Positions 3,287 through 52,000 of a stretch of DNA of 64,000 bases are shown here, one piece after another. How positions within the stretch are numbered: position 1 is the first letter of the stretch; each line of letters begins with the position of its first letter. A program made the translations under genes and the position numbers. Origin of the DNA: Elusimicrobiota bacterium (GTDB lineage: Bacteria; Elusimicrobiota; Elusimicrobia; UBA1565; UBA9628); contig JACPFR010000044.1 in the NCBI GenBank assembly GCA_016182905.1, positions 59,000-122,999 of the forward strand, read 5' to 3'. The notes beneath the pieces were generated by a model. It was not told where the DNA came from, did no database searches, and worked only from the letters and a program-made list of their open reading frames with translations.

Positions 3287-3290
3287 TTTT

Positions 3291-4832: not shown

Positions 4833-6113
<1,281 letters not shown>

Positions 6114-6182: not shown

Positions 6183-6290
6183 AGGCCTACTTCCGCCCTG
6201 AGGCATAAGGCCTAGCACCGTCTAGGCCTAAAGGCCTATGCCCTAGGTCCTACGTCTCGAACGCGTAGGCCCTCTTCCTGGGTCCTAACG
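6183..6290. repeat. Array of short AGGCCTA / palindromic TAGGCCTA motifs (4 perfect, 3 degenerate copies) between the two S8 genes
   Basis: AGGCCTA at 6184, 6208, 6224 and 6232. Variants AGGTCCTA, TAGGCCC and GGTCCTA follow. The same motif recurs at 7569-7575 and 7607-7613, upstream of the second S8 gene. Confidence 0.6.
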
Positions 6291-7502: not shown

Positions 7503-7629
7503 GACTCCTCTAAACGTCGTCTCAGAAGTACCGTCGACGATTCCGAATCTAGCATACTCCGGTCCGAAAGGCCTAGTCGAATTTGGGTCCAATAGGTCAC
7601 TATTTTTAGGCCCTCCGTCCCGGGCCGTA

Positions 7630-7658
7630 TTGACGCCGTCGCGGACGCGGTCTATACT
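7630..7658 (+). promoter_or_regulatory. Sigma70-like promoter TTGACG-17-TATACT ending 6 nt before the ATG at 7665 (predicted leaderless mRNA)
   Basis: Hexamers at 7630-7635 and 7653-7658. The ATG lies 7 nt downstream of the -10 element and no Shine-Dalgarno sequence is possible. Confidence 0.45.
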
Positions 7659-7664
7659 GACCTG

Positions 7665-12410: not shown

Positions 12411-12546
12411 GGTGATTCTCCTTGCGTCAGGGTTCGGCTAAAGGCAGCCGCCCCTCTATTTTTTTACCACGAAGACACAAAGACGCGAAGGAAACGTCGT
12501 TCTTAGCGACTTGGCGTCTTGGTGGTTCGATTAACTGTACAAGAAA

Positions 12547-23149: not shown

Positions 23150-23848
23150 TCAGCGCGGGGCGGTCTTCAGCGTCTTGTGCAGGGCCGAGACGAACTTGGC
23201 CATCTTGACCGGCTTGGCGACGAACTCGACGACGTTCGCCTCCGCGCGGATCATCTTGATCGTCGAGTCGTCGAGCGCGCTGCCGGTGACGATGAAGACC
23301 GGGATGCGCCCGGTCGCCCCGCCCTGGAGCGAGCGCAGGAACTCGTAGCCGCCCTGACCCGGCATCATGAGGTCGGTGATGATGAGGTCCGGCGTCTGGG
23401 ACTCGAGCTTCGCGCCGGCGTCGAGCCCATCGACCGCCGTGAGCACGCGGAAGCCCTGGAGGCTCGCGCTCATCTCGAGGAAGCTGCGCACGGTCTCGTC
23501 GTCGTCGACGACCAGGATCAGCTTGTCGCCCGGGGCCGCGAGAGCGGGCGCGGGATCGGCCACGGTCGTCTCCGCCGGCGCCGCCGGCAGCGGCGCGGCG
23601 GCCGGCGGAGCAACGGGCTTCTCCGCGCGCGGCGGGGCGGCGGTCAGGAAGATGCCGCTCGAGTCCGGGTCCAGCGCCTTCGCCAGGTCGGGGAAGCTCG
23701 CCGCCGCCTTCCACGCGTCCTGCGTGGTCGCGCCGGCCGGAAAGACCAAGGTCTCCCTCTTGAATCCCGGGCGCAGGGCCAGCTGCGCGGCCTCGAACGG
23801 ACCGACCGGCTTTCCCTCTTCATAGAGGTAGTACGGCATGGAGGTCAC
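23150..23848 (-). CDS. Response regulator with N-terminal GYF-like/DUF4339-like domain, Pro/Ala linker and C-terminal receiver domain
   Basis: N-terminus MPYYLYEEGKPVGPFEAAQL. Receiver domain LILVVDDDETVRSF ... LIITDLMMPGQGG ... VFIVTGSA. Third receiver paralog in 3 kb. Confidence 0.75.
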   Translation of the reverse strand: MTSMPYYLYEEGKPVGPFEAAQLALRPGFKRETLVFPAGATTQDAWKAAASFPDLAKALDPDSSGIFLTAAPPRAEKPVAPPAAAPLPAAPAETTVADPAPALAAPGDKLILVVDDDETVRSFLEMSASLQGFRVLTAVDGLDAGAKLESQTPDLIITDLMMPGQGGYEFLRSLQGGATGRIPVFIVTGSALDDSTIKMIRAEANVVEFVAKPVKMAKFVSALHKTLKTAPR

Positions 23849-24155: not shown

Positions 24156-24208
24156 TTCGTTATCTCCATGGGTGCGGCGCTTTCGACTTGCTAGCATACC
24201 CCCTCAAA

Positions 24209-25099
24209 ATGAATCCCGCCAGTCCCCCCCGCCTCGTCCGCCTGCTGCTCGCCGGACTCGCCGCCGCCTCGACGTGCGCGTTCCTGGCCGCCCTCTGGGT
24301 GGTATGGCTGCCGGACGTCTCGCCGCTCAAGAAGAGCCCGCCCGCGACCACGGCCTACATCGAGCTGCGCAAGAAGCAGGCGAAGGCCAAGGGCCGCAAG
24401 CTCGACCTGCGCTGGACCTGGGTCCCTTCCGGGGCGATATCGGAGGACCTCAAAAGGGCCGTCGTGACCGCCGAGGACGACGAGTTCTGGCGCCACGACG
24501 GCGTCGACTGGGACGCGATCCGCGCCGCCTACGAGCGCAACCGCAAGGCGGGGCGTTTCGCCGCCGGCGGCAGCACGATCACGATGCAGCTCGCTCGCAA
24601 CCTCTATCTGTCGCCGAGCAAGAACCCCCTGCGCAAGGCCAAGGAGATCCTCATCGCGCGGCGCCTCGAGCGCGAGCTCGGCAAGCGGCGCGTCCTGGAG
24701 CTCTATCTCAACGTCGTCGAGTGGGGCAAGGGCGTGTTCGGCTGCGAGGCCGCGGCGCGCGTCTACTTCCAGAAATCCTGCGCCGACCTGTCGTACGAGG
24801 AAGCCGTCGCGATGGCCGTCGTCCTCCCCAATCCCCGCCGCTGGAGCCCCGCCAAGCGCGGCCCCTACGTGGAGCGCAACTCCGCGCGGATCATGGGCCG
24901 CATCGCCGCGGCGGACCGGGCGCGGGCCGCGGCGGCGGGAGAACCCCCGGCCGAGACCCCGGCCGGGGACGCGGCCGACGCCGCGGGACCGGACGCGACC
25001 GAGGATCCCGGCGAGGACGACGACGCGATCGTCGAGCCCGAGGTCTACAGCGGCTCGACGACGGTGAACTCCTCGACCGGCTCGGCGCTCGGCGAGTAG
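24209..25099 (+). CDS. mtgA: Monofunctional biosynthetic peptidoglycan transglycosylase (GT51)
   Basis: N-terminal transmembrane helix. GT51 motifs EDDEFWRHDGVDW, GGSTITMQLARN, RKAKEILIARRLE. Start could be TTG 24188 instead of ATG 24209. Confidence 0.85.
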   Translation: MNPASPPRLVRLLLAGLAAASTCAFLAALWVVWLPDVSPLKKSPPATTAYIELRKKQAKAKGRKLDLRWTWVPSGAISEDLKRAVVTAEDDEFWRHDGVDWDAIRAAYERNRKAGRFAAGGSTITMQLARNLYLSPSKNPLRKAKEILIARRLERELGKRRVLELYLNVVEWGKGVFGCEAAARVYFQKSCADLSYEEAVAMAVVLPNPRRWSPAKRGPYVERNSARIMGRIAAADRARAAAAGEPPAETPAGDAADAAGPDATEDPGEDDDAIVEPEVYSGSTTVNSSTGSALGE

Positions 25100-26640
25100 G
25101 GCAGGAAGCCGAAGCCGTTGGAGTAGAAGCCGGCCTCCCCGGTCCAGCCGCTGATGAGGCGCAGCGGGATCGGGCTGCCGACGCGGACCTCGCGCACGAC
25201 GGCCTTGAGGCTCCCCGCCGGCCTCAGGATGTTGGAGTTGACGCGGGGCACGATGACGGCGTCGCCGGGCCGGACCCCGGACCAGCCGCCCGCGGAGGCG
25301 TCGAGCACGGCTCCGCCGGCCTCCTCGACGTAGTGCTGCAGGCCCCAATGGCCGGCGCACCAGAGGCGCCCGCCCTTCGCCGCGCGCTCCGCGGCGGCCT
25401 CGCGGGCCATCGTCCGCTGAGCCCCGGCGTACTGAAAGTCGACGATGGACAGCAGCACGCTCAGGGCCGCGACCCCGGCGAGGCTGACCGCCTGCGCGAG
25501 GCGCAGACGCTTTTCGGGCCAGCGCGCCTCGAGCGCCTCCGCCAGCGAGAAGACCAGCGGCGGGATCAGGAACAGGACGAGCCGGGCGAGGATCGCCCAA
25601 TAAGCGAACAGCAGGAGGGCCGACACCGAGGCGGTCCACGCGGCCCACAGCCTCGCGCCGCGGCCCTCGGCGCGGAAGAGGGCCGACAGGGCGAGCAGGG
25701 CTCCGAAGGAGAACAGGACGCCGGCCGCGCGGTCGACGGGACGCACGAGCGGGGCGAGGTCGAACGCGGGCAGGAACAAGACGATCGCCGCGGCGGCGCA
25801 GGCGGCGACCAGGGCTTTCGACGGCCTCGCCAGCAGGGGCCAGAACGCGACGACGACGCCGCAGCCCCCGGTGAAGGACAGGAACGAGCGCAGCTTGTGG
25901 GACCAGGCGGACCAGTACATCCGCGACGCGTCCGCCGTCACGCCCGCCGCCGAATCCCACGCCCCGCTGCGGAGAAGGGCTCCCCCCAACAGCCAGCACG
26001 CCAGCGGCGCGGCCGCCAAGGCGAAGTATCCCGCCAGACGCCGAGGAGGAACGCGTCCCCACAGAAGGCACAACGCCGGCAGGGCGAGGAAGATCGCGTT
26101 GTATTTCGCCAGCAGCGCGGCGGCGAACAGCGCGGCCGAGGCCCACAGCCAGGCCGGCCGGTCCTCCTCCGCGCCGCGCGCGAGCGCGTAGAGGCTCGGG
26201 AAGGCGAAGCCCGCCATGACCTTCTCCGCCATCAGGTGGTTCATGTCGATCATGTAGGCGGGCGAGGCGACGACGATGAGCGCGGGCAGCAGCGGACGCT
26301 TCAGATAGCGCGCCGCCAGGAGGTAGAGCGCCAGGCTCGACGCCAGGTCGAAAGGCAGGAAGGCCAGGCGCATCGCCGTCTCGCCGCCCCCGGTGAGGCG
26401 CAGAGCCGCCGCCAGGAGGTAGGCCAGCAGCGGCGGCGTGTTGTTGATGCTCGACATCGGCACGGCGTCGCCGTACCAGTTGAACCGGAAGGCGAACGGG
26501 TGCAGGGGGTCGCGCAGTATCCGGCGCGCGATGGCGAGGAAGAAAGGCTCGTCGACGTGGAACGCCTTCCCCAGGAACGGGAAAAGCGCGAGCCCGGTGA
26601 AGGCGGCGACGATCAGGAGGTCCCGGCCGCGCCGCGTCAC
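25045..26640 (-). CDS. Membrane glycosyltransferase of the PMT/ArnT family (GT39/GT83-like)
   Basis: Polytopic membrane protein. Conserved N-terminal DEPFF-like loop (FHVDEPFFLAIARR). 531 aa. Convergent 55-nt overlap with the mtgA 3' end. Confidence 0.7.
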   Translation of the reverse strand: MTRRGRDLLIVAAFTGLALFPFLGKAFHVDEPFFLAIARRILRDPLHPFAFRFNWYGDAVPMSSINNTPPLLAYLLAAALRLTGGGETAMRLAFLPFDLASSLALYLLAARYLKRPLLPALIVVASPAYMIDMNHLMAEKVMAGFAFPSLYALARGAEEDRPAWLWASAALFAAALLAKYNAIFLALPALCLLWGRVPPRRLAGYFALAAAPLACWLLGGALLRSGAWDSAAGVTADASRMYWSAWSHKLRSFLSFTGGCGVVVAFWPLLARPSKALVAACAAAAIVLFLPAFDLAPLVRPVDRAAGVLFSFGALLALSALFRAEGRGARLWAAWTASVSALLLFAYWAILARLVLFLIPPLVFSLAEALEARWPEKRLRLAQAVSLAGVAALSVLLSIVDFQYAGAQRTMAREAAAERAAKGGRLWCAGHWGLQHYVEEAGGAVLDASAGGWSGVRPGDAVIVPRVNSNILRPAGSLKAVVREVRVGSPIPLRLISGWTGEAGFYSNGFGFLPYSPSAEPVEEFTVVEPL

Positions 26641-27512: not shown

Positions 27513-30330
<2,818 letters not shown>

Positions 30331-30344
<14 letters not shown>

Positions 30345-30732
30345 GCGCGGCCTCGGCTTTCAGGAACTCCTCGTACGCCGCCTCGGTCATGAGCTTCGCC
30401 GCCTCGTCGGGAGCGGACGCCTTGAGCTTGAACAGCCAGCCCTTGCCGAAGGCCTCGGCGTTGACGAGCGCGGGGTCCTTGACGACGTCCGCGTTCACCG
30501 CGGTGATCTCGCCGGAGACCGGGGCGTAGATGTCGAAGGCGGCCTTCACCGACTCGACGACGCAGCACGCCTCGCCCTGCTTGACCGTGCGGCCGACCTT
30601 CGGGGGTTCGACGAAGACCACGTCCGTGATCTCCTTCTGCGCGTGGTCGGAGATGCCCACCGTGCCCGCGTCGCCCTGCAGGTCCAGCCACTCGTGCGAC
30701 TTCATGTACATTAATTTCTTCGGATCGAGCAT
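30331..30732 (-). CDS. gcvH: Glycine cleavage system H protein
   Basis: HEWL ... VGISDHAQ ... lipoyl-lysine motif ESVKAA. 133 aa. Confidence 0.9.
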
Positions 30733-30735
30733 AAA

Positions 30736-31854
30736 TCAGGCCCCCTTCTTGAGGTTAGGTGAGATGTAAAACGGCGTTTTGACGATCTCCGCGGCGATGT
30801 CCCGTCCGTGAAGTACGACCGAGACTTTCGTTCCCGGCGGGAGGTCCGGTCTATCAAGGTACCCCGTCCCGATGCCCGCCTGCAGGCTCGGCGAGTACGT
30901 CGCCGAACAGAACTTCCCGATCTCCTTGCCGTCCAGCATGACCGAGGCGCCCGCGCGCGGCACGCCGCGCTCGAGCAGCTTCACGCCGGTGAGCTTCTTC
31001 TTGATGCCCTCCGCCTTCTGCTTGACCAAGGCGGCCTTGCCGATGAAGTCGCCCTTGTCCAGCTTCACGACCCAGCCGTAATTGGCCTCGAAGGTGCTGA
31101 GGTCGTCGTCGAGGTCCTGTCCGTACAGGAGGTAGCCCGCCTCGAGGCGGAGCACGTCGCGGGCGCCGAGGCCGCACGGCGCCGCGCCGAGCGAACGGCC
31201 CTGCGCGAGCAGGTCCTCCCAGACGCGGACGACGATCTCGCTGGGCACGATGAACTCGCAGCCGTCCTCGCCGGTGTAGCCGGTGCGGGTGATGAAGGAG
31301 GGCTGCCCGTACAGCTCGAGCTCAAGCGCGCCGAAGCGCGGCAGGGACGCCATCGCGGGGGCGATCATCGACGCGATCTCGGCCGCCTTCGGACCCTGGA
31401 CCGCGATCATGCCGTAGAGGTCGGACTTGTTCTCGAGCTTCACGTCGAAGCCCTTCGCGTGCTTCTGGAACCAGGCGAAGTCCTTGTCGGCCGTGGCCGC
31501 GTTGACGACGATCAGGTAGCGGTCCTTGGCGAGGCAGGAGACGATGACGTCGTCGACGACCCCGCCCTTCTCGTTGGGCAGGTGGGAGTAGATCGCCTTG
31601 CCCGGGCCGATGCGGGAGATGTCGTTGGCGTTGACCTTCTGAAGGAAGGCGAGCGCGCCGGGGCCCGTCGCGAACACCTGGCCCATGTGGGAGACGTCGA
31701 ACAGGCCGCAGCGGTGGCGCGCGGCCTCGTGCTCCTTCATGATCGATTCGTACTGGACCGGCAATTCCCACCCGTGGAAATCGACGATCTTACCGCCCAG
31801 GTTCTTGTGGCTTTCGTACAGCGCCGTGCGACGCGCGACAGCCGAGGTGGACAT
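30736..31854 (-). CDS. gcvT: Glycine cleavage system T protein (aminomethyltransferase)
   Basis: TALYESH ... VDFHGWELPVQY ... GLFDVSHMG. 372 aa. Confidence 0.9.
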   Translation of the reverse strand: MSTSAVARRTALYESHKNLGGKIVDFHGWELPVQYESIMKEHEAARHRCGLFDVSHMGQVFATGPGALAFLQKVNANDISRIGPGKAIYSHLPNEKGGVVDDVIVSCLAKDRYLIVVNAATADKDFAWFQKHAKGFDVKLENKSDLYGMIAVQGPKAAEIASMIAPAMASLPRFGALELELYGQPSFITRTGYTGEDGCEFIVPSEIVVRVWEDLLAQGRSLGAAPCGLGARDVLRLEAGYLLYGQDLDDDLSTFEANYGWVVKLDKGDFIGKAALVKQKAEGIKKKLTGVKLLERGVPRAGASVMLDGKEIGKFCSATYSPSLQAGIGTGYLDRPDLPPGTKVSVVLHGRDIAAEIVKTPFYISPNLKKGA

Positions 31855-31932
31855 ATGACTAAATTAGCATTTAGCAATAAGTCCGACAATGACCGCGGCC
31901 ACCGCCCGCGACGGCGCCGGATTCGCCGTTTT

Positions 31933-31946
31933 ATGACCATGGTCAT
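31933..31946. promoter_or_regulatory. 14-bp perfect palindrome ATGACCATGGTCAT in the divergent gcvT / 31999-gene intergenic region
   Basis: Seen directly in the sequence, centred on CCATGG. Lies in the gcvT 5' leader on the minus strand. No glycine riboswitch consensus was found here. Confidence 0.35.
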
Positions 31947-31998
31947 GGTCGAGGCGCGGGCAGGGCCTTCATACTAACGAGAAGCGAACAGGAGAACC

Positions 31999-33159
31999 AT
32001 GAACTCGAATCCCTCCGTTTCGGCCCCGGCGCGCGCGATCGGAAGCCTGCTGCTGGCGCTGGCGCCGTTCGCGCCGCCGGCGGCGGCCCAAAGCACGCGC
32101 CATTACGAGGCCGCCGACCCGAACGCGTCCGGCGAGGACGCGAAGGCGTCGCCGGCCCCTGCCGCCGCGGCGTCGCGTCCGGCCCGCTCGGCCCCTCGCG
32201 TCTTTCGCGTCGTCCGGCCCGGAGGCATCCACGCCGAGGCGAACGTGGAGAGTTCGGCCCCGGTCATGGGCGAAGTCGAAGCCGTCGTCGGAGCCGGCAT
32301 CGGTACCGGCGCGAAGGACAAGAGCCCCGGCGCCAATCCCGCGAGGCGCTACTGGGGCGGCTCGAACGGGGCCTCGACCGCTCCCGCGAAGCCGATCACG
32401 TCCTCCGGTCCCAGCGGCCCGGCGAAGCCGCCCAAACAAGGGATCCGCGTCGTCGACGACAAGAAGAACCCGATCGCCTCGGGCTCGTTCTTCGACACGC
32501 AGACCGTTTATTTCCAGATCTTCGGCTACGACGAGAAGGACACGTCCGTTTGCCTGGAGAGCCTGGTCATGAAGGGAGACCTATTAGGGGACTGCGCCGA
32601 TTTCGTGAAATTGCCCGACACGACTTACTCGATCAGCTACAACAACGGGAGATTCTCCTACGCCAACGGGATATGGGAAGCGAGGTACAAGAGCATCTAC
32701 TGGTACGACACGCTGCGCATCTCAGTGACCAACTCGAAGGGCGAGAAGTCGGTCAAAACGTTCCGTACCACCGGCTCGGAAACGCACCCCTCCGCGCTGG
32801 GCCGCCACTTCGTCGACGGCAAGGTCAAGAACTCGCCGTACAAGAGAGGGGAGATCGTCGAGGTCCATATTTTCGGATTCGACGAGAAGGACGCTTTTGT
32901 CTGCACGCAGATCCGCGACGACGCGACCCATGCCGACATCGCCGTCTGCTCTCCGTACGCCGATTTCAGCCGCTTCACGAAGCTGCCGGGCCAAAACTGG
33001 TCCTATCAAAACGGCGCTTGGGTCAAGAAATTCAACACCAACGACATGAGGCTGGATACGACCTATTACGTGCGCCTCAGGAACTCGAAGAACGCCGAGT
33101 ACGCGGACATGCTGCAGTTGATGAGCCACCCCCCCGGCTTCGTCGTGGGGCCGAACTAG
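31999..33159 (+). CDS. Secreted protein with two tandem copies of a roughly 70-aa Cys-containing domain; C-terminal half in a low-GC segment
   Basis: Signal peptide present. Internal repeat: FFDTQTVYFQIFGYDEKDTSVCLE...LPDTTYSISYNNG versus IVEVHIFGFDEKDAFVCTQI...LPGQNWSYQNGAW. GC falls to roughly 55% over 32450-33160. Confidence 0.55.
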   Translation: MNSNPSVSAPARAIGSLLLALAPFAPPAAAQSTRHYEAADPNASGEDAKASPAPAAAASRPARSAPRVFRVVRPGGIHAEANVESSAPVMGEVEAVVGAGIGTGAKDKSPGANPARRYWGGSNGASTAPAKPITSSGPSGPAKPPKQGIRVVDDKKNPIASGSFFDTQTVYFQIFGYDEKDTSVCLESLVMKGDLLGDCADFVKLPDTTYSISYNNGRFSYANGIWEARYKSIYWYDTLRISVTNSKGEKSVKTFRTTGSETHPSALGRHFVDGKVKNSPYKRGEIVEVHIFGFDEKDAFVCTQIRDDATHADIAVCSPYADFSRFTKLPGQNWSYQNGAWVKKFNTNDMRLDTTYYVRLRNSKNAEYADMLQLMSHPPGFVVGPN

Positions 33160-33194: not shown

Positions 33195-33506
33195 CTAGGA
33201 CTTCGCGAGGACGTCGAGGAGCACGCGCGCCAGGCGGCGGCGCTCCACCATGTCGTTCCAGCGCAGCTCGGCGAAGCGCGCGCCGTCGTCGTCGTCATAG
33301 GCGTGGTGCACGAGGGCGGGGATGAGCAGGCGCTCGCCGCCCAGCTCGAACTGGACGAGGACGGTCTCCCCCTTCGCGAGGCGGGCCGCGGTGGACAGCT
33401 CCGCCCCTCCGGCCGTTATCTTAAGGAGACGGCCCCAGGAATCCTGGCGCGCGGAGGAGCCCGGGAAGCGGAGCAGCGCCGGAACGAGGTAAGGGGCCCG
33501 CGTCAT
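33195..33506 (-). CDS. Small PilZ-like domain protein (putative c-di-GMP binding)
   Basis: 103 aa. RQDSWGRLLKITAGGAEL resembles the PilZ (D/N)xSxxG region. The RxxxR motif is not canonical. Confidence 0.4.
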   Translation of the reverse strand: MTRAPYLVPALLRFPGSSARQDSWGRLLKITAGGAELSTAARLAKGETVLVQFELGGERLLIPALVHHAYDDDDGARFAELRWNDMVERRRLARVLLDVLAKS

Positions 33507-34654
33507 CGCGGCTCCTCTTTATGCCGGACCAGACGCGCCGGACCCCGCCCGTCCTTCGCCTCGCCGACGGTCCAGAACCGCGCGCCGTCCCAGGAGACGC
33601 CGGTCGGGATGAAGTCGCCCTCGGCGTATTCGGGGAGCGGGAGGCCGTCGATGGGCTCCTCGGGGCGCTCCAGGGCGTAGCGCACGAGGCGGCGGTCGGC
33701 GGCGTCGAGCGTCCAGAGCGAACGGCCGTCGAAGACCAGGCCGGCGGGCTTCGAGCCGCGCCACCTGTAGGTCGCGAGCACGCTGAGCTCGCGGTCGACG
33801 AGGTGCTTGCGCAGGACCTTGGCGCGGGCGTCGAGCGTCCAGAGATAGAGGCCGTCGAAGGCGAGGCCCGCGCAGTTCGGCGCGGCCTTCGCGTACCGGG
33901 CGAGCGGGGTCATCTTGTCGTCGCGCATGCGGCGGATGACGGTGCCGTCGGCGGAGACCGTCCACATCGCCTCGGCGGTGAAGGCCGCGGCCACGGGCGT
34001 GTCCGCGGTCAGGTGGCGGACGACCCGGACGGCGGTGTCGTCCGGCGAGAGCGCGTAGAAGGATTGGGTGAACCACTCGACGAGCCACAGCGACTTGCCG
34101 TCGAAGGCGAGCCCGGCCGGATGGCGGACCGGGAGCTCCCAGCGGTCGACGCGGGCCGCGGCGGCGGCGCGGTTGGCCTCGACGCGCTTGAGCGAGGCGA
34201 CGCCGAGCCCTGCGGCCAGGAACAGGCCGACGGCCAGCGCGTACCAGATCGGCGAGCGGCTCAGGGGCGCGGCGCTCGCGACCGAGACGGCCGTGCCCTG
34301 GAAGCGCAGGCCCTTGGAGACCGAGGCCTTGAGGTCCTCGGGCGTCCACGGCGGGGCCACGACCTCGGCGGCGCCCACGCGCATCAGCGCCACGGCGCGG
34401 CTCGCGTCGCGCACCTTCAGCGCCACGACCACGGGCATGAGCGGGAAGGCGCGGAGCAGCTCGCGCGTCAGGCTCTCGGCGTCGGCCCCGCCCCCGTCGA
34501 CGAGCAGGAAGGCCTTCGTCTTGCGCTCGCGCGCGAACTCGAGCGCCTCCTCGAGGCGGCCGGCGCCCTCGGTCCGGTGGCCGAGCTCGCCGAGCATGAG
34601 CCCGAGGAGCTCCCGGTCCGCGGCTTCCTTCGCCAGCAATCCGATGGCGGCCAT
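33503..34654 (-). CDS. Membrane protein with N-terminal degenerate receiver-like domain, one transmembrane helix and C-terminal beta-propeller-like repeats (FDGxxLW)
   Basis: Pseudo-receiver: FLLVDGGG ... VVVALKV. TM helix IWYALAVGLFLAAGLGV. Repeats GLAFDGKSLWLVEW / GLAFDGLYLWTLD / GLVFDGRSLWTLD / GVSWDGARFWTVG. Confidence 0.55.
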   Translation of the reverse strand: MAAIGLLAKEAADRELLGLMLGELGHRTEGAGRLEEALEFARERKTKAFLLVDGGGADAESLTRELLRAFPLMPVVVALKVRDASRAVALMRVGAAEVVAPPWTPEDLKASVSKGLRFQGTAVSVASAAPLSRSPIWYALAVGLFLAAGLGVASLKRVEANRAAAAARVDRWELPVRHPAGLAFDGKSLWLVEWFTQSFYALSPDDTAVRVVRHLTADTPVAAAFTAEAMWTVSADGTVIRRMRDDKMTPLARYAKAAPNCAGLAFDGLYLWTLDARAKVLRKHLVDRELSVLATYRWRGSKPAGLVFDGRSLWTLDAADRRLVRYALERPEEPIDGLPLPEYAEGDFIPTGVSWDGARFWTVGEAKDGRGPARLVRHKEEPR

Positions 34655-34655
34655 G

Positions 34656-35996
34656 TCAGTTCGGCGCGGGGATCAGCAGCGAGGCGCCCTCGGCGGGCAG
34701 CCCGCGCTCGACCTTCTCCCGGTTCGCGTCGTAGATCTTCTCCCACAGGTTGGGGTCGCCGTAGTACTCCTTGGCCATCGTGCGCAAGGTGTCCCCGGCC
34801 TTCACCACGTGGCGCTTCGGCCACGCCGGCGGCGCCGGCCGCGCGCGGACCTTGATCTCGACGGGCTTCGGCCGGCCCATGAGGCCGGCGGCCTTCTCGG
34901 CGGCGCGGTAGTCGAGCTCGTCGTTGCGCTTGAGCAGGGCGCGGTACTCGTCCTGCGCCTCGGCCACGCGCTTCTCGAGCACGCGCAGCTGGCTCTCCGC
35001 CGCGGCTTTGTTGGTCTCGGCCGTGCCGGCCTGCTGGGACATCGTCTTCTGCTTCTGCTCGAGGTTCGAGAGATCCGTGCGCAGGGTCTCCGCCTGCGCG
35101 GCGGCCTGGCCGACGAACTGGCCGGTGAAGGACGGGGCGCCGAAGCGGTAGCTGAAGGTGGCCTGATAGCCGCCGCCGGAGCGGTTGAGGCCCGCGGTCG
35201 GCAGGGACATCGCGATGTCCAGGATCATCGGCGAGAAGTTCAGGCCGAGGCCGAACGCGAAGGTGCTCACCCCGTCGAGGTTCAGCCCCTTGCCGCCGCG
35301 CACGCGCAGCAGGCCCTGATGGAAGGTCGCCTCGACGCCGGGATAGAACTCCGCCAGGCCGCCGCGCACGCGGAAGTCGCCGGCGAAAGTGAGGCGGCGG
35401 CCCCAGGCGTACGCCGTCGCGAGCGTGATCGCCGGGCGGGGATACGCCAAGGAGGTGACGAAATCGCTGAGCACGATGCCCGCCGAGAGGCCCATGTTCG
35501 TGCGCGCGATCGCGCCGACGTCGAACCCGAGGCCGAACTTGCCGCCGCTGCCCGCGTCGGAGTTGACGATCTTGGCGTTGGCGCCGATCTTGAGGGGCTT
35601 CGAGAACGGGATCTGGCGGACCCGGTACTCCTGACTGTAGTTGAAGATCAGCGAGTCGATGTCGCCGCCGTTGCGCTGGCGCTCGAGGTGGTAGGCGGCG
35701 CCGATCGTGGCGGTGTTGATCGGCTCGTAGGGGCGCATGTAGGCGCCGGTGGCGAAGGACAACGGCCCCCGCGGCGACAGCATCCGGCCGATGGTGCCCG
35801 CGCCCTGCGTGTACGGGGTGTTCGCCGAGCCGGCGGGGTTGTAAAAAAGGCCGAACGCGTCGTCGGCGATCGCCGAATACGCGGTTCCCATGCCCATCGC
35901 CCTCGCGCCCGGCAGTACGTCGTTGTAAGCGACGGCTCCGGCGTCCGGAGCGGCCAGCGCGAGGACGAGGAGGAGCGCCAAAGCCCTTCTCGTCAT
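34656..35996 (-). CDS. Outer-membrane beta-barrel protein (FadL/PorV-like N-terminal NPA motif) with coiled-coil linker and C-terminal LysM domain
   Basis: Signal peptide present. GMGTAYSAIADDAFGLFYNPAG. C-terminal LysM HVVKAGDTLRTMAKEYYGDPNLWEKIYDAN. Confidence 0.6.
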   Translation of the reverse strand: MTRRALALLLVLALAAPDAGAVAYNDVLPGARAMGMGTAYSAIADDAFGLFYNPAGSANTPYTQGAGTIGRMLSPRGPLSFATGAYMRPYEPINTATIGAAYHLERQRNGGDIDSLIFNYSQEYRVRQIPFSKPLKIGANAKIVNSDAGSGGKFGLGFDVGAIARTNMGLSAGIVLSDFVTSLAYPRPAITLATAYAWGRRLTFAGDFRVRGGLAEFYPGVEATFHQGLLRVRGGKGLNLDGVSTFAFGLGLNFSPMILDIAMSLPTAGLNRSGGGYQATFSYRFGAPSFTGQFVGQAAAQAETLRTDLSNLEQKQKTMSQQAGTAETNKAAAESQLRVLEKRVAEAQDEYRALLKRNDELDYRAAEKAAGLMGRPKPVEIKVRARPAPPAWPKRHVVKAGDTLRTMAKEYYGDPNLWEKIYDANREKVERGLPAEGASLLIPAPN

Positions 35997-36044
35997 CTTG
36001 CGGATTATAGCCGTTAGCCATTACGGAATTAAGTATTGGACGCC

Positions 36045-36073
36045 TTGACAGGACGGCCCGCCCACACCATAAT
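36045..36073 (+). promoter_or_regulatory. Sigma70-like promoter TTGACA-17-CATAAT ending 6 nt before the ATG at 36080 (predicted leaderless)
   Basis: Hexamers at 36045-36050 and 36068-36073. Confidence 0.45.
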
Positions 36074-36079: not shown

Positions 36080-37000
36080 ATGAGCGAGGAGCACCCGCAC
36101 AAGACGAGCCGGCTCGGCGTGATCCTGGTCTTCATCGCCGTCGGCGGCTCGGCCGTCGGGGTGGCGGGCTGGCACCTCATGTCCAACCGCAGCGCCGGCC
36201 TCGACACCTCCGGCTTCGACATGAGCGCCGCGCCGGACCCCGCCCAGTCCGCCGCGCCGCCTTCGTTCCCGGCGCCCGGCCCCGCCGATCCCGCGCCGGC
36301 CCAGCAGACCAGCCTGGGCATGGTCAAGGGGGACGCGGGCATGCGCGTCGCCGGCCCCGGCGCCTCGACGCCCAAGCCGGCGGGCGCCTCCGGCGCGACT
36401 CCGAACCCGACCGACCCGCGGCAGGCGGCGGCGCTGAACTTTAAGGAGGCCGCGCTCAAGAACGAGAAGATCGTGGCCGCCTTCGTCCGGCGCATGGAGA
36501 AGAAGCACACGTCCATCACGCAATACGGCCGGGACTGGGCCGCGTCCCCCGAGCTGCGCGCCCTGCGCGACGCGTATTGGAAGGACAGGGATCCCTTGAA
36601 GTTCGCCTACGGCCTGGCCAAGTCGAACGATTTCAGCAAGCTGGTGAAGAAATACGCGGGCGATCCCGGGATCCGCGACGCCCTGGTCACGGGCATCAAG
36701 GAGGCGCCTCCGAGCCTGACGGCCGCGATCGGCGGGGTCGCCCAGAACGACGGCGTCGCGAAGAGTCTCGTAAGCACCGTGATCAAGGCCGTCGGCCTTC
36801 CCGCGAGCCTGACCGGCTTCCTCGACGGGGGCGAAGCCAAGGCCGTCAACCGGGATCAGGTCATGTCCGACATCATGAACTCCGAGGACATGAAGAAGGC
36901 CATGAAGAACCAGCCCGCCGCCGTGCCGCTCGACGCGAAGGACGCCGAGAAGGCCCCGGAAGCGGCGCCCAACGGATTCCGCCCCCTCGGCGGACGCTGA
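36080..37000 (+). CDS. Hypothetical membrane-anchored periplasmic protein
   Basis: N-terminal transmembrane helix (LGVILVFIAVGGSAVGVAGW), Pro/Ala-rich linker, helical C-terminal domain. 306 aa. Confidence 0.5.
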   Translation: MSEEHPHKTSRLGVILVFIAVGGSAVGVAGWHLMSNRSAGLDTSGFDMSAAPDPAQSAAPPSFPAPGPADPAPAQQTSLGMVKGDAGMRVAGPGASTPKPAGASGATPNPTDPRQAAALNFKEAALKNEKIVAAFVRRMEKKHTSITQYGRDWAASPELRALRDAYWKDRDPLKFAYGLAKSNDFSKLVKKYAGDPGIRDALVTGIKEAPPSLTAAIGGVAQNDGVAKSLVSTVIKAVGLPASLTGFLDGGEAKAVNRDQVMSDIMNSEDMKKAMKNQPAAVPLDAKDAEKAPEAAPNGFRPLGGR

Positions 37001-37068: not shown

Positions 37069-37305
37069 TCAGTTGTTCCCGGTGGTCTTGAGCGTGGTCG
37101 CAGGTTTGGAGCTGCTCGACGACTCGGTGTCGCCGATGCACTGGTTCCCCACCCTGTGCGTGCCGGCGCCGCATTTGTAGGACATCGGCTGGGACAACGA
37201 GGTCGAGGAGGTTTCTTCCGGCTGCTGCGAACAGCCGCTGCAAGCGGCCGCGCCCAGCATCCCGAGGCTGAGGATCACGGCGAAGAGTCTGTGTAGATTT
37301 TTCAT
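37069..37305 (-). CDS. Small Cys-motif lipoprotein (78 aa)
   Basis: Lipobox LGAAAC. Motifs CSGC ... CGAGTHRVGNQCIG. Paralog of 37318..37491. Confidence 0.5.
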   Translation of the reverse strand: MKNLHRLFAVILSLGMLGAAACSGCSQQPEETSSTSLSQPMSYKCGAGTHRVGNQCIGDTESSSSSKPATTLKTTGNN

Positions 37306-37317: not shown

Positions 37318-37491
37318 TTATTTCACCTTCCCGACGCACTGAGTTCCCTGGGCGACCGTTCCCGGTCCGCAGGTGACCGGCGGAGCCGCGGTCTGCTTCG
37401 CCTCCTCCGCGGGCATGCAGCCGCTGCACCCGGATAGGGCCATGGCTCCGAAGGAGACCACGGCGAGAACGATCAACGATAGGCTCTTCAT
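37318..37491 (-). CDS. Small Cys-motif lipoprotein (57 aa)
   Basis: Start at MKSLSLIVLAVVSFGAMALSGC with GGGAGA ribosome-binding site. Motifs CSGC ... CGPGTVAQGTQCVG. A TTGACA-17-TACACT promoter lies on the minus strand at 37530-37558. Confidence 0.5.
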   Translation of the reverse strand: MKSLSLIVLAVVSFGAMALSGCSGCMPAEEAKQTAAPPVTCGPGTVAQGTQCVGKVK

Positions 37492-37585: not shown

Positions 37586-38509
37586 TTACCGCGCTAAAAG
37601 GGCTTCCTGGAGGCGCCGGGACACCGAGCCCGGCAGCCACACGAGATGCAGGATCGCCGTGTAATGCCCCAAGGGGAGCCAGACCTGGCGGGAGTCGGGG
37701 AAGGCCTCCTTGAGCCTCAAGGCGTTGGCCCTCGGGATGACCGTGTCCGAGTTCACGTTGATCAGGAGGGCCTTCTTGCCCGCGTTGGACGCCTTGTAGT
37801 CCAAGGGGTCGAGGCCGGTCCAGGCCGTCCGAAGATCCCCCGCCTGGAGGCCCATCTTCTTGACGAAAGGCCCGCTCAACGAGCCGTTGAGCGCGATGCC
37901 CGGGAAATCGGCCCCGCCCATCACGAACACGCCGGCCGCCGGCCGCGGGTCCACGGACCACGTCACCGAGCCCACGATGGCGCCGAGGCTGATGCCGAAC
38001 AGGGCCACCCGCTCAGGGTCCACCTCGGGCCGGGCGGCGAGCACGCCGAAGGCCCGCCGCGCGTCCGAGACCGACTGGCGGAAGTTCCGCGCGAGCTGGC
38101 CGGTCGTACGCGCGAGGAAGACCTGGCCGCTCGGCATGGACGGATGCGGCCGGCGGTGGAACTGCGTGGGCATCTCGATCCACATGACGACGAGGCCGTC
38201 CGAAACGAAGCGGTCCACGAAACGCGTCTCGATCCAGACGTTCGGCGCGGCCATCACGGGAAGGACCAGCACCGCCGCGCCGCTCTTCCGCTTCGCCGCG
38301 TCAGGCACGGACAGGTGCGCCCAGACCGTGTCGTTGGCCGGCCACGGGCTCTTCGCCGCCGACGGGAACTTGAGCAGGTAGTCGGTCCGGCCCGGCGCCG
38401 TGCTGACCTCGACGATCGAGATCTTGAAGTCCTTGCCCGGCGCCGCGAGGCCCGCGGCCCCGGCCGGCGCGGCCAGCAGCAGCGCGAGCGCGGCGGCGGT
38501 CCCCGTCAC
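37586..38509 (-). CDS. Secreted alpha/beta-hydrolase (dienelactone-hydrolase / S9-like esterase fold)
   Basis: GISLGA nucleophile elbow. A GTG start 2 nt after the upstream outer-membrane-protein stop was chosen; it could instead start up to 99 nt upstream (MGQVHGP...). Confidence 0.55.
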   Translation of the reverse strand: MTGTAAALALLLAAPAGAAGLAAPGKDFKISIVEVSTAPGRTDYLLKFPSAAKSPWPANDTVWAHLSVPDAAKRKSGAAVLVLPVMAAPNVWIETRFVDRFVSDGLVVMWIEMPTQFHRRPHPSMPSGQVFLARTTGQLARNFRQSVSDARRAFGVLAARPEVDPERVALFGISLGAIVGSVTWSVDPRPAAGVFVMGGADFPGIALNGSLSGPFVKKMGLQAGDLRTAWTGLDPLDYKASNAGKKALLINVNSDTVIPRANALRLKEAFPDSRQVWLPLGHYTAILHLVWLPGSVSRRLQEALLAR

Positions 38510-38511
38510 GG

Positions 38512-39957
38512 CTAGAACCCCATGACCAAGGAGAACGCGCCTTGGTAGATGTCGTTGAGGCCGAGGGAGGTCGCGCTGCGGACCGTGGACTTGCCCATGA
38601 CCCAATACGAGTACTCGAACTTCGCGGCGAAATGCTCGGCCAGCTGCCAATGGGCGCCGGCCGTGTATTTGCGGATCCGGCGCGTGACGAACGGCGCCGC
38701 GGCGCGGTAGGCCGTCATCGAGTCGAAGGTCGTGGTCCCGTCGTTGAAGTTCAAGAGGAAGTCCAGCAGCGGCCCGCGCCGGTACATCTCGTTGTAGACG
38801 AGCAGCCCGGTCAGGCGCCGGCCGTAGGGCGGACGGCGCATCAGCGGGAAGGAGGCCTGGATGAAGTAGCCGTAGAGATGCTCGACCTGGCGCGAATGGC
38901 TCCCGGTCGACAGGAGCACGGGCGACGACTCCGTGGAGGAGGGCGCGAGCATCGGCGTCAGGAAGTGGTTCTTGCTGTACATCACCTCCCCGGACAGGTT
39001 GATCCCGCGATAGTCGAAGGCCCAGTCCGCGCTCCACATCTCGTAGTTCAGGTACCCCTCGAGATCGTAGTTGCCGCCCATGCCGGACAGGCCGAGGTGC
39101 GTGCCCGTCAGGTCCGCGGCGCGCTCGGGCACCGGCCAGGGCAGGCGCAGGTCGCCGAGCCCGAACACGACGCGCCCTCCGAGGGACTTGGCGTTGTTGT
39201 TGTCGGCGAGGTTGTTGTTGTCGTGGCCGAAGTCCGGCGATACGCCTTCGGTGCCGGGACCGGGTATGCCCAGGTTCGACGGGTTCGGAAAGGTGCGCAG
39301 GCGGTTCTTCTGCTCGCCGACGCCGTTGACGACGAACAGAGTGGCCTCGCTGGGCACCAGCGGGTGGACCCGGACCGGATACCAGCTCCAGCGCAGGCCG
39401 ATGTCGCTGTAGCCGTAGCTGAGCGGCGGCCGCGGCGAGTTGGGACGCACGACGAGGTCGAGGCTGTCGGGCGACGCGTACAGGAGCGGCCGCGTCACCG
39501 CGAGATACTGGTCGGGACGGTACAGCTCGTTGTAGCGCCCGAACGGGACCATGAACTTGCCGAACTGGAACTTGATGCGGCGCACCTTGTCGTACTCCAC
39601 GTAGGCCTGGCTCAGGCGCGGCGCGCCCCGGCCCGCGGTCGGGAGGTTCCACTCGATGAGGACGGGAACGCCCTCGGTGACGGGGCCTTCGGCCCCGAAG
39701 TACATGTCCGCCAGGTAGACCTGGTTCTGGATCTGCGTCTCGAAGCCGGGTTCACGCGGGCCGACGTTGCGCCAATTAAGGGAAGCGGCGCCGAACAGCC
39801 TCACCTTGGCGAGCGTCTCCAGCGCGCGGGTCAGGCCCGGGCTGATCGCCGCCGGAGCGGAGACCGCCGTCTCCGCGCGGGCGGGCGCGGCGGAGGCCGT
39901 CAGCAGAAAGCCGAGGAAAATTTGACAAGAAATGGACGATGATGTACGATGGACCAC
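38512..39957 (-). CDS. Outer-membrane beta-barrel protein (porin-like), C-terminal Phe
   Basis: Predicted signal peptide from GTG 39957 (VHRTSSSISCQIFLGFLLTASAAPARA). Alternating amphipathic beta-strands. Ends ...AFSLVMGF. Confidence 0.5.
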   Translation of the reverse strand: MVHRTSSSISCQIFLGFLLTASAAPARAETAVSAPAAISPGLTRALETLAKVRLFGAASLNWRNVGPREPGFETQIQNQVYLADMYFGAEGPVTEGVPVLIEWNLPTAGRGAPRLSQAYVEYDKVRRIKFQFGKFMVPFGRYNELYRPDQYLAVTRPLLYASPDSLDLVVRPNSPRPPLSYGYSDIGLRWSWYPVRVHPLVPSEATLFVVNGVGEQKNRLRTFPNPSNLGIPGPGTEGVSPDFGHDNNNLADNNNAKSLGGRVVFGLGDLRLPWPVPERAADLTGTHLGLSGMGGNYDLEGYLNYEMWSADWAFDYRGINLSGEVMYSKNHFLTPMLAPSSTESSPVLLSTGSHSRQVEHLYGYFIQASFPLMRRPPYGRRLTGLLVYNEMYRRGPLLDFLLNFNDGTTTFDSMTAYRAAAPFVTRRIRKYTAGAHWQLAEHFAAKFEYSYWVMGKSTVRSATSLGLNDIYQGAFSLVMGF

Positions 39958-50296: not shown

Positions 50297-51117
50297 AGCC
50301 GGCGCTGCTCCTCTGGCCGCTGCTCGCCGCGGCGCTCCTCTACCTCGGCCTGCGCCGCTTCGAGCGGTCGATGACCTTCGTCCCCTCGCGCGAGATGCTC
50401 GCCCACCCCGGCACCGTCGGCCTCGCCTACGAGCCTTTGTTCCTGACCGCCTCCGACGGCGTGAAGCTCCGGGCCTGGTGGATCCCCGGCCCATCCGAGG
50501 ATTCCCCGGTCATGCTCTGCCTGCACGGCAACGGCGGCAACCTCTCGCACCGAACCGACAAGATGCGCCTGTTTCACGACGCGGGCGCCGCCCAGCTGTG
50601 GCTCGACTGGCGCGGCTACGGCGAGAGCGCCGGGACCCCGGACGAGCCGGGCCTGTACCGCGACGCGCTCGCCGGCTGGGCGTGGCTCAACGCGGTCAAG
50701 GCCGTCCCCGCTTCGCGCCTCGTGCTCTACGGCGAGTCGCTCGGCGGCGCCCCGGCCATCGAGCTCGCCTCGCGCGTGCCCGCCGCCGGCCTGATCGTCG
50801 ACAGCTCGTTCACCTCGGCCGCCGACATGGCCCGGCACATCCTGCCCCGCTTCCCGGTCCGCCTCCTCAGCGCGCGCTTCGACAACCTCGCCCGCCTGCC
50901 GCGCGTGACGATCCCGACGCTCTTCCTGCACAGCCCGCAGGACGACATCATCCCCTACGCGATGGCCCTGAAGAACCTGGGCGCCTCCGGCTCGGCGAAG
51001 AAGCGCCTCGTCGACCTCAAGGGCTCCCACAACGAGGGCTTCCTCGACTCGGGGCCGACCTACCCGAAGGCGATCCGGGAATTCCTGGCGTCGCTGCCGG
51101 CGGAACCTAGGAAATAG
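50293..51117 (+). CDS. Alpha/beta-hydrolase (S33/S9-like serine hydrolase) with N-terminal membrane anchor
   Basis: GTGA overlap with the upstream gene. LCLHGNGGN ... GESLGG nucleophile elbow. Confidence 0.7.
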
Positions 51118-52000
51118 CCGTTCCCTCCCCCAGAATCCGCCGCCGCTCCGAATCGTTATGCGCCCTGCACAACAGCCGAAGATTTCCTATCTCGTCCGTG
51201 CCTCCGAGCGCGCGCGGCTTCACATGGTCCACCTCCAGGGACCTTCGTGCCAAGCACCTGACTCCCGTCGTTCCAATGTAGGCGCACCGCGCGCCGTCGC
51301 GCGCCCAAACGGAGCGGCGCACTCTTGCCGGGAGGGAGCTCCCGCCCTTAACGGGCGATAGGCGGCCCGGCAGTCCCTTTTCCGGATCGTGACGCGCCAG
51401 ATAATCCCGGGCTATCTCCAGAAGGATCTCGTCGATGGCTCCGCTCGGACATTTATGCCCCAGCAGTTGACGGGCTCGATCTATCGCCTCGCGAAGGGCC
51501 AGGGGACCTCGGAAACTGAAATCGACCCGCAGGACTGGAGCGCCATCCGTCCCCGACCCCGAAGCGACCGCGACGACACGGACCGAGCTCCTCCTTTCCG
51601 GTTCAGGCCGCAAGGGCGCGAGCATCTCGTCTATTTGCCGGGCGGATTTCCCCTCCGCCCGGGAGATGATCTCCGGGGCGTCCGGACGATGAACGAAGGG
51701 CGCTATCTTCGAAACGGCCGACAAAGACAGCTGACCGTCGGCCAGCGCTGAGAGCAGCTCGGGACGGGAGACCGTCGCCCGCGCGGCGTGGATCCTCCGA
51801 TATGATTCATCCTCGCTGAGCTTCAAGCGTCGGATGCAAAAGTCGAACGTGGAAGAATAGCCCCATTCTTCGGGAAGCTTCCGCCTGTCGGCTTCGCCGA
51901 GCCAGGACAGAAAGGAATGGAGGCGCTCGCGCTCCTCTTCCACGAAGCGATCGAGCCTCGCCAGCAGTTCCTCGCTCGACAACGACCTCGGGTCATCCAT
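51107..52000 (-). CDS. DUF222 + HNH endonuclease domain protein, in a roughly 62% GC patch
   Basis: C-terminal HNH motif EVDHVKPRALGGTDEIGNLRLLCRAHN. N-terminal DUF222-like region. Local GC is clearly below the surrounding 70-72%. Confidence 0.75.
   Translation of the reverse strand: MDDPRSLSSEELLARLDRFVEEERERLHSFLSWLGEADRRKLPEEWGYSSTFDFCIRRLKLSEDESYRRIHAARATVSRPELLSALADGQLSLSAVSKIAPFVHRPDAPEIISRAEGKSARQIDEMLAPLRPEPERRSSVRVVAVASGSGTDGAPVLRVDFSFRGPLALREAIDRARQLLGHKCPSGAIDEILLEIARDYLARHDPEKGLPGRLSPVKGGSSLPARVRRSVWARDGARCAYIGTTGVRCLARRSLEVDHVKPRALGGTDEIGNLRLLCRAHNDSERRRILGEGTAIS

Follow-up and report, generated by a model that had tools for sequence, protein, structure and literature searches.

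The minus strand of a 64,000-nucleotide stretch of DNA from an Elusimicrobiota bacterium (assembly GCA_016182905.1, contig JACPFR010000044.1, positions 59,000 to 122,999; the whole stretch is called the window here and all coordinates are its own) carries a three-gene operon that has been found so far only in Elusimicrobiota. The first gene is predicted to encode an outer-membrane protein that also binds the cell wall, the second a bitopic inner-membrane protein and the third a cytoplasmic protein of the PilZ family. From these predictions we infer the localisation of the three proteins, their contacts with each other, the binding of peptidoglycan and their function: the operon would encode a trans-envelope complex, similar to PorP and PorE, which anchors the outer membrane to the peptidoglycan and to the inner membrane and in which the signalling inputs have decayed. 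We give this reading an even chance of being right. A first-pass annotation of the same DNA had also proposed an envelope-spanning module, and this part of it is supported by the predicted locations of the products, the coupling of the genes and their co-inheritance.

How the outer membrane is fastened and how surface proteins are held is poorly known in the non-model diderm phyla. The catalogued types of tether are four, namely Lpp, Pal, OmpA and OmpM, and, if the reading is true, a PorV/PorP-type barrel which carries LysM at the end of a coiled-coil stalk would be a possible fifth design. This barrel-coiled coil-LysM architecture appears to be undescribed; a limited search of the literature returned neither a protein that combines a PorV or FadL barrel with a coiled coil and LysM nor a type IX system of secretion (T9SS), or a cargo pairing like that of one, in Elusimicrobia. 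The domains all belong to known kinds, and in its logic the arrangement matches anchoring systems that are already known.

The operon and its three products

The genes are transcribed in the order outer-membrane protein (gene 1), middle protein (gene 2) and PilZ-like protein (gene 3), which places the PilZ-like gene at the downstream end of the operon and not upstream, where the first-pass annotation had put it. The spacing between genes 1 and 2 is a single nucleotide (position 34655), as had been noticed before. The 4-bp overlaps that had been described elsewhere in the operon come down to one, the ATGA at 33503-33506 shared by the stop codon of gene 2 and the start codon of gene 3; there is no second one of this kind. 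In all three open reading frames (ORFs) the GC content at third codon positions (GC3) is 0.91-0.96, which is typical of genuine genes at the GC content of the window (~68%).

A scan that took one genome per species detected 57 loci, all of them from Elusimicrobiota, in which the middle protein ranges from 96% down to 37% identity. The order of the three genes is kept in every locus that is sufficiently long. In 52 independent loci, which span the same range of identity, genes 1 and 2 are separated by -4 to +18 nt, and the junction of genes 2 and 3 is a 4-nt overlap in 39 of the 52. Order and spacing that stay fixed across 52 loci go far beyond chance and argue for co-translation and a shared function. 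There are 203 homologues of gene 1 and 178 of gene 2 (nearly all of the latter 382-386 amino acids (aa) long), and those that carry a name all come from uncultured Elusimicrobiota. The closest genome carrying the operon is a groundwater metagenome-assembled genome (MAG) with 96% identity, and the groundwater run SRR12113422 holds the same 18-kb contig.

The 83-bp intergenic region 5' of gene 1 is shared with a divergent gene for a 306-aa protein. A perfect TATAAT hexamer in this region (Table 1) may serve as the -10 element for an operon transcript with little or no leader. A scan for promoters and terminators gave no convincing minus-strand candidate for the operon and left this hexamer uncalled because the -35 hexamer paired with it (TTAATT) is weak. 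In an Rfam scan no riboswitch or other RNA family was found near the operon, the sole match being a tRNA at 3212-3283.

The AlphaFold2 model of gene 1, built on 47 orthologues, has a mean confidence (predicted local distance difference test, pLDDT) of 82.9 and consists of a plugged barrel, a long helix and a small C-terminal domain. In Foldseek comparisons with the PDB, the best matches of the barrel are PorV in the SprA complex (8gl6_F, 6h3i_F), accompanied by FadL, TodX and CymD; the matches also include the FadL mutant P34A (entry 2r4l). The 14 strands and the N-terminal plug with its NPA motif are those of a FadL/PorV barrel, while the profile scores stay below the curated thresholds (PorV_fam of NCBIfam, E=6e-9 and 35.9 bits at a cutoff of 90; PorVQ2, 33.5 bits at a cutoff of 325). 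Within the motif, N53 and P54 are invariant in the 47 orthologues.

The barrel is followed by a single uninterrupted helix whose hydrophobic periodicity has a power of 0.738 at 3.5 residues, as opposed to 0.364 at 3.6, over 11 heptads. As a lone helix of 12 nm would be unstable, the stalk and with it the gene 1 protein is presumably a dimer or trimer. Behind an indel-rich linker, the C-terminal domain matches the NCBIfam LysM entry PRK11198 (E=6e-7) and is predicted to bind peptidoglycan. The window copy reaches 13.7 bits against Pfam LysM (PF01476; cutoff 20.9), and of the 47 orthologues 20 match Pfam LysM and 16 match Phage_tail_X. When 1.84 billion representative proteins were searched with a profile, 59 clusters came out with the identical full-length build, that is a barrel of 246-290 aa, a helix of 61-111 aa, a linker and a LysM domain of ~50 aa. 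The NPA motif is kept in 48 of these 59 distant cluster representatives, and the helix, with a median length of 84 aa, often changes in steps of ~7. The named members of the clusters belong to Elusimicrobiota and to one Candidatus Firestonebacteria. The earlier description of the outer-membrane protein, in which an NPA barrel is followed by a coiled coil and by LysM, is confirmed by the motif, the number of strands, the heptads and the predicted LysM-type fold.

In the model of gene 2 (pLDDT 89.6), a disordered hinge joins a receiver fold to a long helix, behind which lies a five-bladed propeller. The N-terminal domain has the (beta-alpha)5 fold of PF00072, and a profile of the gene 2 family matches receiver domains in the PDB with E=7e-7. 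That the receiver is degenerate and has lost its first acidic pocket was already known from the first pass; the degeneracy turns out to be more thorough. In place of the acidic pair behind beta1, the window has A8-K9 and the 57 loci have A, G or C followed by K, A, S or R, the Thr/Ser of beta4 is replaced by Leu (L or M in 52 of 58 sequences), and the Lys of beta5 is replaced by a Pro within an invariant APPW (P in 51 of 58 sequences). With the acidic pair, the Thr/Ser and the Lys all gone, the domain is a pseudo-receiver. As to the beta3 acceptor, the window and its close relatives have an Asp (VD) at or next to the position, one alignment column off, and more distant orthologues have AQ, AC, VE or VA.

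The one transmembrane (TM) helix that had been claimed for gene 2 was recovered at aa 136-155. Because the receiver must be cytoplasmic and no signal peptide is present, the propeller should be periplasmic, and the more positive charge N-terminal of the helix is consistent with this. Four blades with an FDGxxLW motif had been placed in the periplasm. Four blades do carry the motif, in the form (F/W)DGxx(L/F)W (FDGKSLW, FDGLYLW, FDGRSLW, WDGARFW), but the propeller has five blades, the second in order being degenerate (AEAMWTV). The fold resembles the five-bladed propellers of glutaminyl cyclase and E. coli YjiK, at 11-15% identity. A Pfam scan of gene 2 gave no match to PF05096 (Glu_cyclase_2) at E<=1, and a glutaminyl cyclase function was not adopted in view of the missing profile match, the low identity and the tethering behind a receiver. 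A combination of receiver, TM helix and five-bladed propeller was found nowhere in the literature searched.

It is reasonable, judging by its sequence relatives, to count gene 3 among the PilZ family, as PF07238 is matched by 31 of 42 orthologues, at best with E=4e-8. For the window copy itself, Pfam gives no match at E<=1, and the match to TIGR02266, a family of PilZ-like paralogues from Myxococcus, is weak (E=0.015). No PilZ chain was found when the family profile was compared with all PDB sequences, and the mapping of the motifs therefore relied on a relative with a canonical PilZ protein (locus L070; R6xxxR10 and D35-L-S37-L-G-G40). An hhalign comparison of the family profile with PA4608 gave a spurious 12-column match and was not used.

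In this mapping, R3 of the gene 3 N-terminus (MTRAPYLVP) aligns with the second Arg of RxxxR. The protein starts two residues ahead of that position and lacks the first Arg, and a longer N-terminus is impossible because an in-frame TAA lies 5 codons upstream. The equivalent of DxSxxG is KITAGG (33405-33422; K29-I-T31-A-G-G34). Across 52 or more orthologues the position of the Asp is variable (K, E, V, T, S or A), the position of the Ser is taken by T, S, A, N or P, and the GG decays in the more distant ones. Invariant in the orthologues are a WGR motif and F14, R20, D72, D74 and G75. The first-pass annotation had seen the module as responsive to cyclic di-GMP (c-di-GMP) and had itself named the loss of the RxxxR or DxSxxG residues upon alignment as a finding that would refute it. 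The residues are lost, so that the claim is not supported here and the locus, going by its sequence, is not predicted to respond to c-di-GMP.

Distant relatives, mechanism and rival explanations

Nine gene contexts of more distant members of the barrel-stalk-LysM family were inspected. In the loci L063, L067, L068, L069, L071 and L072, the barrel gene abuts a gene for a giant protein, often with overlapping stop and start codons. The giants have 942-2101 aa, fn3 or FlgD-Ig repeats and a C-terminus that resembles the type B sorting domain of the T9SS, with matches to CHU_C in Pfam. Of five C-termini scanned with NCBIfam, four match TIGR04131 (E=8e-8 to 6e-5, 23-32 bits at a cutoff of 35) and that of L063 matches only a type A domain; for L071 and L072 the type B assignment comes from precomputed weak CHU_C matches. 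The distant barrels score 51-82 bits against PorV_fam and up to 51.6 bits (E=9e-14) against T9SS_PorP_fam, all below the cutoffs, and one of them has a precomputed Pfam PorP_SprF match. Giants with such a type-B-like C-terminal domain (CTD) occur in Elusimicrobiota and in Candidatus Firestonebacteria, phyla which have not been credited with type IX secretion.

A partner in which some cytoplasmic part X is followed by a TM helix and a propeller is present in eight of the nine contexts. In L067, L069 and L072, the barrel gene is followed by a gene for a soluble coiled-coil histidine kinase and then by a 400-449-aa homologue of the middle protein in which the receiver is fully canonical (DD, D, T and K present). 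In these response regulators, one TM helix separates the receiver from a five-bladed propeller in the periplasm, an output on the far side of the membrane being unusual. Elsewhere, the propeller protein has as its cytoplasmic part a TPR domain (L064), a long coiled coil (L063, L066) or, in L071, a receiver with a coiled coil. L070 is an intermediate arrangement with the order barrel gene, kinase-like gene, degenerate receiver-TM-propeller gene and canonical PilZ gene, and in L063 and L065 the module is flanked by GGDEF genes. The distant contexts thus point to a constant core of barrel-stalk-LysM and X-TM-propeller proteins, with X and its partner as interchangeable regulatory modules. At 4 kb from the barrel-LysM gene of L071 lies a gene (12415-14370, minus strand) for a 651-aa protein with a faint Reg_prop match and an OmpA domain, a pairing like that of PorE.

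According to the anchoring model, the three products form a stoichiometric complex which would span the envelope and whose role would be mechanical and organisational. Gene 1 would be inserted in the outer membrane by its plugged barrel of 14 strands, which belongs to the FadL/PorV/PorP superfamily. The C-terminus of the protein would lead into an oligomeric coiled-coil stalk of ~11-12 nm in the periplasm, followed by the flexible linker and by the LysM domain, which would grip the peptidoglycan. Gene 2 would be held in the inner membrane by its one helix and expose the propeller to the periplasm. Propellers are typical protein-binding platforms, and this one would most likely bind the stalk or LysM end of gene 1 or the adjacent wall. 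On the cytoplasmic side, the receiver-fold domain would no longer be phosphorylatable, and gene 3, a PilZ fold without the residues for binding c-di-GMP, would most likely dock on it as an adaptor. The contexts in other Elusimicrobiota and in Firestonebacteria suggest an ancestral state in which the barrel-stalk-LysM protein stood beside the giants with a type-B-like CTD and the propeller protein had a canonical receiver served by a soluble histidine kinase. Such an arrangement would imply that the pair works like PorP, a barrel that holds cargo, and PorE, which combines a propeller with wall binding. In the clade of the window, the phosphorylation input and the c-di-GMP input would both have decayed.

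In favour of an anchoring role, the window holds many envelope genes (Transgly, PMT_2, AsmA/DUF748, Amidase_3, NlpC/P60, Mur ligase). Several points weigh against it. Among the ~40 ORFs scanned in the window there was no CHU_C, Por_Secre_tail or T9SS gene, and without CTD cargo or T9SS core a role like that of PorP may not hold for this clade. Barrels of the FadL type normally act as monomeric transporters and not as anchors. None of the window copies of the three proteins passes a curated Pfam or NCBIfam cutoff alone, and for this reason the domain assignments rest on family-level profiles and predicted structure. A purely structural role also leaves a conserved alpha/beta-hydrolase and a 481-aa protein like an outer-membrane protein, both encoded next to the operon, unexplained, and the organisms that carry the operon are all uncultured MAGs. 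In addition, Elusimicrobia have Tol-Pal (PMC12204202), so that an extra tether is not obviously needed.

A more far-reaching proposal, which we consider doubtful, extends the anchor to the whole family. The barrel-stalk-LysM proteins of Elusimicrobiota and Firestonebacteria would be an undescribed class of connector, with the order of OmpM/SlpA reversed and a barrel of the PorV/PorP type, and together with the propeller partner they would form the core of a pathway, either independent of the T9SS or a very divergent form of it, that holds the giants with a type-B-like CTD. Control would originally have run from the inside out, from a kinase through a response regulator with a periplasmic propeller as its output; phosphorylation would then have been replaced by c-di-GMP and PilZ, as in the arrangement of L070, and this control would in turn have been lost. 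Already if the anchoring model is right, the T9SS-style pairing of barrel and CTD cargo would reach beyond the Fibrobacteres-Chlorobi-Bacteroidetes (FCB) superphylum, and the relatives with a canonical receiver and a soluble kinase suggest signalling from the cytoplasm to the periplasm by way of a response regulator, which would constitute a new class of two-component output.

The conserved hydrolase would find an explanation if the operon served uptake and sensing instead. The FadL-type barrel would import a hydrophobic or lipid-like substrate, the hydrolase would process it, the propeller would sense it and the pseudo-receiver with its PilZ adaptor would signal inward, the coiled coil and LysM domain only positioning the channel. 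This would fit with FadL, TodX and CymD being among the best structural matches, with the conserved NPA motif of the plug, with the resemblance of the propeller to five-bladed folds of enzymes and ligand-binding proteins (glutaminyl cyclase, YjiK), and with the synteny of the hydrolase and the 481-aa protein in at least 31 loci. However, the CTD-bearing giants of the relatives point to a PorV/PorP-like handling of cargo and not to the import of small molecules, and a pseudo-receiver without DNA-binding or enzymatic output offers no obvious route for a signal, which makes uptake and sensing unlikely. A shade less likely again is a switch in which the PilZ protein binds c-di-GMP and acts through the pseudo-receiver on the propeller and the outer-membrane protein. 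At the level of the family the idea is not baseless: the 103-aa protein belongs with PilZ there, the PilZ protein of L070 has canonical RxxxR and DxSxxG motifs in the same gene order, and GGDEF genes lie beside the module in L063 and L065. At this locus, the switch is possible only with a non-canonical site, which the invariant WGR, D72, D74 and G75 could build, as the upstream stop codon fixes the N-terminus behind the first Arg, the Asp of DxSxxG is a Lys that the orthologues do not conserve, the GG decays too, and no GGDEF, EAL or HD-GYP gene was found among the window ORFs scanned. PilZ proteins of Xanthomonas and Pseudomonas without the RxxxR and DxSxxG residues reportedly do not bind c-di-GMP.

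The wealth of wall genes could also be taken to mean that the operon regulates wall remodelling, the coiled-coil-LysM tail and the propeller recruiting or controlling peptidoglycan hydrolases in the manner of EnvC, NlpD or DipM and thereby coupling the position of the outer membrane to wall hydrolysis, for example at division. Hydrolase activators are commonly built from LysM and a coiled coil, genes for Amidase_3, NlpC/P60 with Peptidase_C39_2, a Mur ligase and a monofunctional transglycosylase lie in the neighbourhood, and L002, L004 and L005 show synteny of the upstream NlpC/P60-ferredoxin block. The hydrolase genes nevertheless lie at a distance of several kb and on other strands, the contexts of the distant relatives do not retain them, and none of the three proteins has a LytM or amidase-activating domain; we regard this role as improbable. 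Next to no weight can be given to the view that the genes are mere neighbours without a shared function or that some of the ORFs are spurious. Only the lack of curated family matches for the window copies speaks for it, and it is opposed by the GC3 in all three frames, the intact orthologues with fixed order and spacing down to 37% identity and the high-confidence folds of genes 1 and 2, the synteny excluding chance adjacency.

Neighbouring genes and other features of the window

The genes for the 481-aa protein and the hydrolase lie upstream of the operon (Table 1). Besides being syntenic with the operon, the pair abuts the barrel gene in L066, L032 and L054 and is probably associated with it. 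The divergent 306-aa gene is conserved at the same position in 41 loci. Between this gene and the hydrolase gene are two tiny ORFs on the minus strand (37069-37305, 78 aa; 37318-37491, 57 aa) with lipoprotein-like signals (…AACSGC, …LSGCSGC) and paired Cys, which are conserved only in close relatives (12-13 loci). Convergent with the operon is the gene for a secreted 386-aa protein (31999-33159, plus strand) with a low-complexity N-terminal half, two internal repeats (…IFGYDEKD…/…IFGFDEKD…) and no family match, which is absent from all other loci.

Table 1. Features of the operon and its upstream neighbours (window coordinates)
Feature	Position	Strand	Basis
Gene 1, outer-membrane protein, 446 aa	34656-35996	-	ORF list
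Signal peptide, aa 1-21 (…APDAGA/VAY), without lipobox Cys	35934-35996	-	Sequence; N-terminal helix, then low-confidence segment in model
N-terminal plug/hatch, aa 22-62	35811-35933	-	Model, alignment
NPA motif, aa 53-55 (FYNPAG segment)	35832-35840	-	Sequence
Predicted 14-stranded beta-barrel of FadL/PorV/PorP type, aa 63-285	35142-35810	-	Model
Predicted periplasmic coiled-coil stalk, aa 290-372, ~11 heptads, ~11-12 nm	34881-35129	-	Model: single uninterrupted 83-residue helix
Pro/Lys-rich flexible linker, aa 373-393	34818-34880	-	pLDDT <50 at aa 373-387; indel-rich in alignment
LysM-type domain, aa 394-446	34659-34817	-	Beta-alpha-alpha-beta fold in model, aa 394-442
Gene 2, bitopic inner-membrane protein (predicted), 383 aa	33503-34654	-	ORF list
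Cytoplasmic pseudo-receiver, aa 1-116	34307-34654	-	
Single TM helix, aa 136-155 (IWYALAVGLFLAAGLGVASL)	34190-34249	-	Within long helix 134-166 of model
Predicted periplasmic five-bladed beta-propeller, aa 170-380	33515-34147	-	
Gene 3, degenerate PilZ-family protein, 103 aa	33195-33506	-	ORF list
TATAAT hexamer, perfect, 7 nt 5' of gene 1 ATG	36004-36009	-	Spotted by eye
Promoter-like TTGACA-17-CATAAT, near consensus, before divergent 306-aa gene	36045-36073	+	Promoter scan
Divergent 306-aa protein: TM anchor, Pro-rich linker, helical C-terminal domain, no family match	36080-37000	+	
307-aa secreted alpha/beta-hydrolase, GISLG elbow, RcgR-like (E=2e-11)	37586-38509	-	
481-aa protein, outer-membrane-protein-like, no family match, ends ...MGF like an outer-membrane barrel	38512-39957	-	

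Further away, the first part of the window (1-4000) has a GC content of 59-63% as compared with ~70% and contains an AbiEii-type toxin gene (2118-3029, plus strand) beside the tRNA gene (3212-3283, plus strand); it may be an integrated element. A gene at 23150-23848 (minus strand) fuses a GYF_2 domain to a canonical receiver, an uncommon build for a response regulator, and adjoins genes for a monofunctional transglycosylase (24188-25099) and a PMT_2 glycosyltransferase (25045-26640). No glycine riboswitch was detected at the Rfam gathering threshold in the region 31855-31998, 5' of gcvT-gcvH-gcvP (27513-31854, minus strand). Two adjacent subtilases (4833-8360, minus strand), an HNH endonuclease with a DUF222-like N-terminus (51107-52000, minus strand) and a Ser/Thr protein kinase (61960-63618, plus strand) are encoded by ordinary genes.

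Comparison with known systems

The closest described system, by analogy of domains and gene context, is the complex of PorP, PorE and cargo in type IX secretion. PorP/SprF is a 14-strand outer-membrane barrel that holds proteins with a type B CTD on the surface, porP-like genes adjoin the genes of their cargo, and PorE, composed of TPR, beta-propeller, CRD and an OmpA_C domain that binds peptidoglycan, connects PorP with the wall (PMC9143113). The likeness extends to a 14-strand barrel of the same superfamily, to the presence of a putative peptidoglycan-binding domain and a beta-propeller in the predicted periplasmic parts, to the position of the barrel gene of the relatives beside giants with a type-B-like CTD, just as porP-like genes stand beside their cargo, and to the TPR repeats in the propeller protein of one relative. 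In contrast to PorE, however, the wall binder is LysM and not OmpA_C and is fused to the barrel by a coiled coil instead of being part of the propeller protein, and the propeller protein would be held in the inner membrane, with a receiver or pseudo-receiver on its cytoplasmic side, whereas PorE is an outer-membrane lipoprotein. The scanned ORFs of the window also hold no cargo or T9SS core gene, and Elusimicrobiota are not known to possess a T9SS.

The OmpM/SlpA proteins of Terrabacteria (PMC10628300, PMC9388160) likewise unite a barrel, a periplasmic coiled-coil stalk and a wall binder in one polypeptide, and the stalk of gene 1 has a length on the order of the distance between outer membrane and peptidoglycan, as theirs does. 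The domain order is reversed, with gene 1 running from barrel through stalk to a C-terminal binder, while OmpM/SlpA have an N-terminal SLH domain, then the coiled coil and then the barrel. Moreover, the binder of gene 1 is LysM without any SLH domain, its barrel is a plugged 14-strand one of the FadL/PorV type and not a porin of 16 or 30 strands, and it is accompanied by an inner-membrane partner. For the barrel itself, PorV (LptO) and FadL are the best structural matches, with the same 14 strands and the same N-terminal plug with conserved NPA motif. The sub-cutoff score (35.9 vs 90 bits) and an extra periplasmic tail of 160 residues set gene 1 apart from both, and no partner like the SprA translocon of PorV is known for it.

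The propeller of gene 2 shares its five blades with glutaminyl cyclase (PF05096), but the identity to this enzyme and to YjiK of the SdiA-regulated family is 11-15%, and the propeller of gene 2 differs further in being attached to the inner membrane, with a receiver in front of it. Tol-Pal, which joins a propeller with a wall-binding outer-membrane protein, was retained as a mechanistic picture only; Elusimicrobia already have it.

The cytoplasmic parts have parallels of their own. The PilZ proteins of the type IV pilus in Xanthomonas and Pseudomonas and the TIGR02266 paralogues of Myxococcus are reportedly small PilZ folds without RxxxR and part of DxSxxG, and gene 3 would be expected to work in the same way by contact with a protein and not by binding a nucleotide. 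Its partner would be a membrane-anchored pseudo-receiver instead of FimX or PilB, and no relation to pilus genes was seen. FrzS and the N-terminal ARD of TadZ/CpaE are receiver folds without the chemistry of a phospho-acceptor that serve as docking modules, and in Alg44-type proteins a cytoplasmic regulatory PilZ domain is connected across one TM helix with a domain in the periplasm that faces an outer-membrane partner. Gene 2 would combine the docking receiver of the former with the single-TM logic of the latter, with the difference that the PilZ domain of Alg44 is fused and binds c-di-GMP, while the PilZ protein of gene 3 is separate.

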